The position numbers were made by a program, and so were the translations under genes. The notes below the pieces were generated by a model. It had not been told where the DNA came from. It saw only the letters and a program-made list of their open reading frames with translations, and did not search any database. From Octopus vulgaris (Eukaryota): a DNA stretch of 64,000 bases. The DNA lies in the NCBI GenBank assembly GCA_951406725.2, contig OX597824.1, forward strand, positions 49,910,001-49,974,000, given 5' to 3'. Position 1 is the first letter of the stretch. Each line of letters opens with the position of its first letter. This document shows positions 5,715 through 26,105 of this stretch, in pieces.

Positions 5715-5945
5715 AAGAATTTTATTTAATTCATTTTGCAGGAAGGACTGCTTCGGCCGGATCGTGTTCTGCCCTTACCTTCGAAACACGCATTGAGTCG
5801 AACCAGGGGCAGCTGATGAAGGGGAATATTCCTTGTATTGTTTGTCTTGTACTCTGTTTTCGTTGTTAAAAAAGTCCGTTTCCTCGTTTGTTTTCGTTTC
5901 TCGTTGTGTTCTACGTTTATTTGTGGTGTCCTGTACTCATATATA
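5715..5945 (+). mobile_element. Probable PLE pseudo-LTR end carrying a rearranged hammerhead
   Basis: Homologous to about 9214-9410: both start GAATTTTATTT..GCAGGAAGG and end TGTGGTGTCCTGTACTCA next to TA-rich sequence. Confidence 0.6.
5763..5824 (+). ncRNA. Candidate non-circularly permuted hammerhead ribozyme
   Basis: CGTGTT-CTGCCCTT / CCTTC-GAAA-CACG / AGGGGCAG-CTGATGA-AGGGG: all conserved core residues with stem III (5 bp), stem I (8 bp) and stem II, but the strands occur in reversed order. Confidence 0.6.
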
Positions 5946-6107
5946 TATACAAGGATGAAAAAAAACGGAAAAGTGGTACACAAATGCAAATGCAAATAAA
6001 GGTTATTAACAACAGGTATCATTCGACTAAGGACGAATTAAGTTAAGCTGGTGTGTGTCGAAGTGAAGCCTTACGACAGGGACATAAGAGATGAAAGGCA
6101 TAGGGAG

Positions 6108-8625: not shown

Positions 8626-8681
<56 letters not shown>

Positions 8682-8764
8682 CAAGATAAGGGCAGAAGAA
8701 AAATTCTAATGCCAGATACGTCGAAACAAAAAATTGTCGATAACCATTAAATTTATCCTATATC

Positions 8765-8803
<39 letters not shown>

Positions 8804-8804
<1 letters not shown>

Positions 8805-9050
8805 TTTATTTAAAGCAGCAGAAAATTCAACAAAACCTGTTACTCTGAGTTTCACGTTCCCGTTCGTCGGACAGTTTTTGCTAGAATATATCGGTTCTAT
8901 TCTAGCAAAAACTGTCTGACGAACGGGAACGTGAAACTCAGAGTAACAGGTTTTGTTGAATTTTCTGCTGCTTTAAATAAAGCATATTACTCTACCACTG
9001 GTATTTGAGTACTCTTTTTTCTACCTTGTTTCACATTTATGTGTTTACTC
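8804..9050. mobile_element. PLE pseudo-LTR end with an 85-bp inverted duplication
   Basis: 8804-8888 is the reverse complement of 8898-8982 (1 mismatch, 9-nt spacer); abuts (TA)n; contains a hammerhead. Confidence 0.75.
8912..8949 (+). ncRNA. Minimal type I hammerhead ribozyme
   Basis: CTGT-CTGACGA-ACG GGAA CGT-GAAACTCAGAGTA-ACAG: stem I CTGT/ACAG, stem II ACG/CGT, quasi-palindromic stem III, GTA site. The mirror copy on the minus strand at about 8837-8874 has CCGACGA. Confidence 0.85.
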
Positions 9051-9255
9051 CGGCTTTTTCATTCGTGCTCTTGTGTGTTTGATTTCCTGTATCGTATTCT
9101 CTTTTTATTTTCTCGTTTTGTATTTATTTGTATTTTTTGTACATGTATTTTTATTTTTGCAGTTTTATTGTTACGTCCTGTTCGTGCTCGTACTCATTTT
9201 GCCCCGCTGCTTGGAATTTTATTTTAATTCTCTCGCAGGAAGGCCTAATGGATTA

Positions 9256-9303
9256 GTGTTCTGTCTCTGCCTTCGAAACATGCTTGACAGCTGATGACGG
9301 GGG
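9256..9303 (+). ncRNA. Second copy of the candidate rearranged hammerhead
   Basis: GTGTT-CTGTC / CCTTC-GAAA-CAT / GACAG-CTGATGA-CGGGG; stem I CTGTC/GACAG versus CTGCC/GGCAG in copy 1. Confidence 0.5.
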
Positions 9304-9473
9304 TTTTTTCCTTGTATAGCACGTCCTGTAACTGTTTTTCTCGTTTTCTTGTTTTTTGTTTTTTTGATTTTCCCGTTTCTACGTCTTATTGTGGTGTCCT
9401 GTACTCACGTATAATTATTTATATATGCATGTATATATATATATGTTTGTATGTATGCATATATTTTTATTTA

Positions 9474-9515
<42 letters not shown>

Positions 9516-19917: not shown

Positions 19918-20482
<565 letters not shown>

Positions 20483-24774: not shown

Positions 24775-26105
24775 TACACCACCCGCCTCACTAGCACCCA
24801 CCATCGACCCTATCCCATCATCCACTCCTTCACCTGCACCTCCAGCAATATTATCTATTGCATCTCTTGCTCTCTCTGCAATTCCTTGTACATCGGACAA
24901 ACGGGACGCCGCTTGGCTGACCGGTTCGCGGAACACCTTCGTGACATCCACCTTGCGAACGACACACCGGTCTCACGCCATTTCCGCTCCACCGGTCACT
25001 CCTTGCAACACCTATCTGTGTTCGGTTTGTCCTTACACAGAGGCCATCCGGATTCCCGTTTGCGCCGTGAACAGGAATTAATCTTCTCTCTTCGCTCTTA
25101 TACGCCATTTGGTCTCAACTCTCCCCCCTCCTCATCTAACCCCCCTCTCCCCCCTCCTCACCTATCCTTTCTCCCCCGACCCCTACTTCTTCAGTCCTTC
25201 ATCCTTTCACCCCTACTCCCCTTCCCTTCTTCCCTCTTTCTCCCTCCCTCTTCCCCTTCCCTCTGCTCCCTCACTCCCTCTCTCCCCCTCTCCCTCTTTC
25301 CTCCTTCATCCCCCTCCTCCCCTTCCTTCTCCCCATCCTCTCCTCTTCCCCCTTCTCCTCCCCCTCTTCTTCCCCTCGCCTTCTCTCCCCCTCTTCTCCC
25401 CTCCCCCTCTTCTCCTCACTACACCACATGACTTTACACATCACATCACATATGATGTGCCATACTAATACACACACCAACTAATACATACTAATACGTA
25501 CTAATACATACCAGTACATACTAATACTTACACCAACCCTATACATACACACGTCCAGACCCCGCATACGCACTTATACTCTCTCTCACACACACACACA
25601 CACCTATACATACCAATACGTACTAATACATACTAATACATACTAATACATACACCAACCCCATACATACGCACGTCCAGACCAATCTTACGCACTAATA
25701 CTCTCTCATACACACACACACACACACACACACCCTTATACATACTAATACATACACCAACCCTATACATACACACATCCAGACCCCTCCCACGCACTTT
25801 TAGCTGGTCCCTCAACCCTTTTATCAACCCTATTATCTCACCTTATTTCGCTCTCGCGTCTCATGTTTGATCTTTGACCTCTGGCCGAAATCAGATCGCC
25901 ATGTTGATTCGTTAGCTACTGCACGCATTTTTTTTCTCTCCTTCTTTCTGTGTTTTTCTCTCTCTGTGTATCTTTCTGTTGAAGAGCGTAGGCTCGAAAC
26001 GTTAAAGACTTGTTTTATTTATATTTCCTGAGCGCCATACTAATACAATTGTTCGTTTGTTTTCCACCTGCCTTCGTCTTTTGTTTATTTTCATAAAGCT
26101 TCCCG

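Follow-up and report, generated by a model that had tools for sequence, protein, structure and literature searches.

The closest described relatives of the motif reported here are the type SGC hammerhead ribozymes, HRIMA-1 and its variants (PMC10085705). As set out in the accessible text of that paper, they have in common with the octopus motif the S-G-C order of blocks, a short linker between stem I and stem II, a full core, and a double pseudoknot in which a helix bridges the far ends of stems I and II. That text places no permuted ribozyme in the genome of a known organism, save one bacterial GCS candidate, and assumes that at most 1-2 nt can be inserted between positions 9 and 10.1 (Eckert 2023, PMC10085705). 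Unlike type SGC, the octopus motif has its stem II and bridging strands upstream and its block C interrupted, and it is carried by a repeat of an animal genome in thousands of copies (compared with the same text).

The minimal type-I hammerheads of PLEs form a second point of comparison (Cervera and de la Pena 2014, PMC4209133). Within the accessible part of that report, features shared with the octopus motif are a location at a pLTR-like 3' end near intron-like sites, division into numerous subfamilies that covary, and a discontinuity at 9/10.1 that is tolerated in the form of one extra base. These type-I hammerheads follow the C-G-S order, their stem III is tiny or palindromic, and they depend on dimers; the octopus motif runs in reversed, knotted order and its stem III is full. 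Naiad PLEs are reported to be without a canonical hammerhead, with Naiad_Ovul flagged HHR_half_core; the available parts of that paper give half-cores and no structure that fits the motif, whereas the octopus Naiad ends show the opened wiring described below (Craig et al. 2021, PMC8557442). Non-LTR retrozymes are likewise short, non-coding, tandem hammerhead units that depend on PLE proteins (bioRxiv 10.64898/2026.07.22.740005; PMC7229834), and the accessible text of the preprint mentions neither a permuted or pseudoknotted ribozyme nor a cephalopod. Searches of the openly available literature returned no paper on a permuted hammerhead from an animal genome or on one opened at 9/10.1, and neither is described in the accessible text of PMC6962438.

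The motif lies on the forward strand of a 64,000-nucleotide stretch of Octopus vulgaris DNA (assembly GCA_951406725.2, contig OX597824.1, positions 49,910,001 to 49,974,000), here called the window. The string CCTTCGAAACA occurs exactly twice in the window, and 0.63 occurrences are expected with one mismatch allowed. Copy 1 (5742-5824, subfamily S46 by clustering) has all motif strands, within a repeat extending from about 5715 to 5949; its motif (5764-5824) has CTGCC/GGCAG in stem I and ACAC in stem III, and the predicted cut falls between 5768 and 5769. Copy 2 (9256-9303) reads GTGT-T-CTGTC-TCTG-CCTTC-GAA-ACAT-GCTT-GACAG-CTGATGA-C-GGGGG. These letters and coordinates, and the differences from copy 1, agree with the preliminary description of this DNA, and the S-G-C block order that it proposed is supported. 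A generic descriptor scan of the window found no match beyond copies 1 and 2. Rfam gave no hammerhead match at either copy and no hammerhead family among the 150 of 497 matches listed for the whole window. The genome is about 2.8 Gb in size and contains many simple repeats.

Copy 2 is a 5'-truncated 3' part (9052-9478, forward strand) of a non-coding unit of about 800 bp; clustering places it in subfamily S11, and it is 88-89% identical to two relatives, L303 and L307. By its sequence, block S (9256-9265) consists of the stem III strand GTGT, a U at H17 (9260) and the stem I strand CTGTC, with the predicted cut between 9260 and 9261. Block G (9270-9281) holds the stem II 3' strand CCTTC, GAA and the stem III strand ACAT, and positions 9286-9297 hold the stem I strand GACAG followed by the core CUGAUGA; both assignments agree with the pair tables. 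The predicted stem II 5' strand, GAAGG (G10.1-G10.5), lies at 9239-9243, also on the forward strand, and is the exact complement of 9270-9274. It is paired in the single-strand fold as well, and C9244 could add a sixth stem II pair with G9269. It is followed at 9245-9255 by the upstream strand of a distal helix that extends stem III, assigned from the upstream/linker duplex in the subfamily consensuses; in the alignment, the partner of this strand is deleted from copy 2.

The core pattern matched 1845 times genome-wide, and the reversed control matched 0 times. From 268 motif segments we derived 19 subfamily consensuses, taken from 20 clusters of 3 or more; one cluster was dropped, its upstream part being (TA)n, as were 37 segments in smaller clusters. 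The regular expressions used to collect copies demanded the core, so its conservation partly reflects the collection itself; only in looser patterns and in the DNA searches that fetched two distant families were N7, H17 and the stem letters free. The 19 consensus rows are also related to one another and therefore represent far fewer independent events. Within these bounds, the core CUGANGA, GAAA and an NUH cut site are present in 19/19 consensuses, partly as a result of the collecting patterns, and core letters vary at two positions only: N7 (U in 14, A in 4, G in 1) and H17 (U in 9, C in 7, A in 3, never G). Around this core, stems I, II and III covary, with stem II formed by the upstream strand and with A15.1-U16.1 and G10.1-C11.1 kept. 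Stem I (1.1-1.5) and stem III (15.1-15.4) are paired in 19/19 consensuses, with changes on both sides at 1.1, 1.2, 1.4, 1.5, 1.6, 15.2, 15.3 and 15.4; one stem III change (S31, 4 copies) could be explained by CpG decay on both strands.

The change of stem I from CTGCC/GGCAG to CTGTC/GACAG had been read as covariation, to be refuted if the C>T and G>A changes segregated independently among copies. At this pair (1.4/2.4), 1343 copies comprised 203 C-G, 1101 U-A, 16 C.A and 23 U-G, so that 1304/1343 are C-G or U-A. The 39 discordant copies compare with 371 expected, and independence fails. Neither base lies within a CpG. On a tree of the consensuses other than Naiad (18 in all, rooted on the L202 family), the U-A subfamilies of the main family form a single group, so the change is subfamily inheritance from about one event in that family. 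An ancestral U-A at this pair was not borne out by the rooted tree. Further compensatory changes, affecting all three stems, occur in other subfamilies. The accompanying change in stem III from C-G to U-G is indeed seen in copy 2 and does not hold as covariation: it is one-sided, lies at a CpG site, and the same C>T recurs among unrelated copies.

Stem II had been assigned to the downstream G-run (C-GGGGG, 9298-9303), but the covarying partner lies upstream, at GAAGG, beyond the interval first described. In the pair tables the downstream strand is a wobble-rich alternative that fails in the Naiad family, and assigning stem II to it is probably wrong. The upstream stem II forms 5/5 pairs in 19/19 consensuses, and an unanchored search found an exact complement 30-38 nt upstream in 18/19. 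In 15/17 main-family consensuses there is also a second exact complement, overlapping G8-A9, whose pairing would make the fold inactive; the subfamily of copy 2 and both distant families lack it. Three families have three different stem II sequences (GAAGG/CCTTC, GAGCA/TGCTC and GACAC/GTGTC), the upstream strand and its partner having changed together at 3/5 positions in each distant family. The upstream strand is followed, after one base, by a helix formed with the linker from stem III to stem I. That upstream/linker helix was better than shuffles (at most 15 of 300) in 15/19 consensuses. A helix between the 5' and 3' tails reached the same threshold in 0/19, and no helix was found that holds the opening shut. 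Single-base changes at stem II positions 11.2 and 11.3 gave 22 and 16 matches, respectively; these were mostly private decay without compensation, and they led to the two distant families. Single-strand folds, computed without pseudoknots, were unremarkable (z from -0.75 to 0.45).

Because the covarying stem II partner lies about 35 nt upstream across three families, the core of the predicted fold is likely opened between A9 and G10.1. A9 is not joined to G10.1 directly or through 1-2 nt; the strand that begins with G10.1 is instead 30-38 nt upstream of its partner. Splicing that would rejoin A9 to G10.1 was considered and rejected: in the main family the core is not followed by a donor, and several subfamilies lack the acceptor-like AG before G10.1. 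Among tested hammerheads, we are aware of none whose backbone is open at 9/10.1. PLE hammerheads commonly have one extra base there (PMC4209133, accessible text), which makes it a plausible place for an opening, and a full break may be tolerated. By every sequence test but the contiguous A9-G10.1 link, the predicted fold of the family is hammerhead-like. The failure of that link sets it apart from type SGC, as a variant hammerhead and predicted ribozyme rather than a type SGC member; neither an uninterrupted block C nor the 3' bridging helix of that type is present. Its wiring likely lies outside the six block orders of Eckert 2023.

In the predicted order, a stem II strand beginning with G10.1 would be followed by a distal-helix strand, a stem III strand, the cut site and a stem I strand; after 2-5 nt would come the other stem II strand with GAAA and a stem III strand, then the second distal-helix strand and the second stem I strand with CUGANGA. 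Stem III and the distal helix would make up one interrupted hairpin, and stems I and II would form two pseudoknots onto its loop. This topology would be that of type SGC circularly permuted, with the ends inside block C. Taking the copies together, we think it probable, with real room for error, that copy 2, which has lost 12 bases, is dead and that its intact relatives are predicted self-cleaving hammerheads opened at A9/G10.1.

An ordinary type SGC ribozyme with an intact block C is a rival explanation, with stem II formed by the downstream G-run after a one-base insertion and the upstream strands forming an inhibitory fold. In 18/19 consensuses the downstream G-run allows a contiguous stem II with G10.1-C11.1, at least 4 pairs and two wobbles; this alternative reaches 5 pairs in the subfamily of copy 2, and in the L202 family it has changed compatibly. 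One extra base between 9 and 10.1 would be typical of PLE hammerheads (PMC4209133), and the linker of 2-5 nt between the stem I and stem II strands in 19/19 consensuses agrees with type SGC (PMC10085705), as far as the accessible texts describe them. However, the downstream stem of the Naiad family has a G.G mismatch at its third pair where the upstream stem is perfect, and in the other families it needs two G-U pairs. The downstream/linker helix, required in tested SGC ribozymes according to the accessible text of PMC10085705, passed the shuffle threshold in 0/19 consensuses. We therefore regard this explanation as unlikely.

The main family consists of a non-coding unit of about 800-900 bp that is arrayed at (TA)n both in tandem and in inverted orientation. 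Partial copies in either arrangement (layouts in 30 loci) and insertion into (TA)n are features of Penelope-like elements, and the sequence evidence makes the main family a non-autonomous Penelope-like one. The motif begins about 440-550 nt after the unit start in 28/30 loci, with no PLE ORF inside the unit; an RT plus GIY-YIG ORF was found in the Naiad family only. An ORF listing, Pfam on 24 ORFs, long stretches and tblastn over 422 loci yielded no autonomous partner for the main family. A nearby PLE ORF at L382 was rejected as the partner, as (TA)n and other repeats lie between. At L161:1100-1130, a tandem main-family copy meets a PLE ORF fragment head-to-head at a palindromic CAGCTG that overlaps the core start, possibly by a template switch between the two elements. 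Donor- and acceptor-like motifs that could mark an intron at the pLTR boundary are present, the acceptor being missing from several subfamilies; contigs of four sequencing runs, guessed to be RNA, showed no splice joint when compared with one unit and are uninformative either way. A metagenome pattern scan gave 4 matches, none with an S block, which we treated as chance.

The third family corresponds to the published 3' ends of Naiad_Obim and Naiad_Ovul (accessible part of the PMC8557442 supplement). By eye, of the 8 consensus 3' ends in that part of the paper, named here by table order, the 2 octopus ends have the opened wiring, two nematode ends and one spider end have the usual order, and three have neither. 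At L247, a PLE-type RT fragment lies upstream of a Naiad-family motif on the same (sense) strand. In the Naiad family (L244-L272), the internal loop separating stem III from the distal helix fits, by eye, a box C/D-type kink-turn. Main-family subfamilies have purine-rich internal loops with a poorer kink-turn fit.

If the predicted ribozyme acts, RNA would be cut after H17, which may process tandem precursor transcripts. Reverse transcription would start about 200 nt downstream and often stop just short of the 5' end left by the cut, and any copy extending beyond the site would derive from a template that was uncut, tandem or re-ligated. A downstream anchor selected 941 copies, of which the first 100 were used to map 5' ends. 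Within this sample, 34/97 ended in the 55 nt after the predicted cut and 8/63 in the 55 nt before it (Fisher p 0.0017), so that ends are about three times denser after the cut than before. Thirteen ends fell at +4 to +10, where about 1 was expected. The peak thus lies 4-10 nt beyond the cut, not at the cut, and partly at a TA that offers microhomology; 63/100 copies extend past the predicted site, and two junctions at -33 are possibly one event. This pile-up fits run-off at a cut RNA end, consistent with the self-cleavage predicted from the sequence.

The same peak could, however, arise by RT stalling in a stable fold, as expected if the fold were real and did not cut now or ever, serving as a protein-binding or RT-handling element, or if it cut only with the protein of the element. 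PLE hammerheads are often slow (PMC4209133, accessible text), one needed protein (PMC11167929), and insertion by a Poseidon PLE in vitro did not need cleavage (PMC11167929). The restriction of core variation to N7 and H17, the latter never G, is expected under selection on catalysis, and protein-assisted cutting would still be catalysis by the same fold. These points make a fold that does not cut by itself improbable.

Copy 2 departs from the family in its linker. The preliminary description had noted that only about 4 nt separate stem III from stem I, which is borne out (GCTT, 9282-9285), and had concluded that the copy is either deleted or needs a partner molecule; the first alternative stands and the second does not. 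Alignment to L303 reveals a clean 12-nt gap between short GA/GAC repeats (9282-9288), a deletion of microhomology type that removes the strand which, in relatives, pairs with sequence upstream of the cut site. A second gap, of 22 nt (9436-9441), lies further 3' and takes out a motif resembling a 5' splice site that relatives have; any splice role for it is suggested by the consensus only. Spacers of 10 nt or less occur in 7/1845 copies and that of copy 2 in 1/1845, so the short linker is copy-specific, a private decay and no subfamily trait. A 17-nt linker deletion common to L035-L037, on different contigs, is either a recurrent event or a dead copy that spread. Judged from general hammerhead shape, a linker of 4 nt would probably not reach between the far ends of stems III and I. 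Because the second distal-helix strand is lost and the remaining linker would be too short, copy 2 is likely dead, with no trans-partner role.

A ribozyme assembled from two units, as tandem copies or as two molecules with copy 2 as the trans partner, might be suspected from the tandem and inverted arrays and from the dimer action of many PLE hammerheads (PMC4209133, accessible text). The unique linker and the second private deletion speak against copy 2 as such a partner. Stem III has 4-5 non-palindromic pairs, unlike the short palindromic stem III of dimer-type hammerheads, and the distal helix pairs inside a single unit. Pairing across tandem units, conceivable from the sequence, would still leave the core open at 9/10.1, and we consider a two-unit ribozyme decidedly improbable. 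Chance pairing inside one expanded repeat, which the origin of the copy counts in a few master elements might suggest, is scarcely credible and, unless three alignments are wrong, is refuted by the compensatory changes, since every pair and the core are preserved across three families whose letters differ in stems I, II and III alike.

Other motifs lie near copy 2. At 8908-8954 on the forward strand, 300 nt upstream of copy 2, a different repeat carries a hammerhead-like motif of type I in canonical order, whose palindromic stem III is of dimer type; it lies within an inverted repeat (8799-8987) with 94% identity. A mirrored motif at about 8832-8878 on the reverse strand has a core change at U4, and Rfam gave no hammerhead match at either motif. 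A short repeat fragment at 8681-8770, with inverted copies near 20.2-20.4 kb (20177-20430), is possibly the end of another Penelope-like family, and 24811-25023 resembles a region adjacent to PLE GIY-YIG (tblastn, E about 1e-8). Elsewhere in the genome, the 3' ends of GIY-YIG-bearing PLEs at L156:2570-2600 and L161:2475-2500 have, by eye, a hammerhead-like motif with the U3-A8 core variant found in Schistosoma PLEs (PMC4209133, accessible text).

A broader reading of the opened hammerhead, to which we give somewhat less than even credence, is that octopus PLEs, among them the Naiads, possess an active hammerhead of a seventh wiring, broken at A9/G10.1, which would close on a ligated circle that templates tandem insertions. 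Held just as tentatively, all the remainder of a circular or tandem transcript could then lie within the core. Copy 2 itself is a decayed member of the family, useful as a natural deletion control. Because descriptor and Rfam searches miss such wiring, it may be common. If the prediction is true, non-circularly permuted ribozymes would be known from an animal genome as well as from metatranscriptome RNAs, the CUGANGA block could no longer be assumed to be uninterruptible, and octopus Naiads, at least, would gain the ribozyme that they were reported to be missing.
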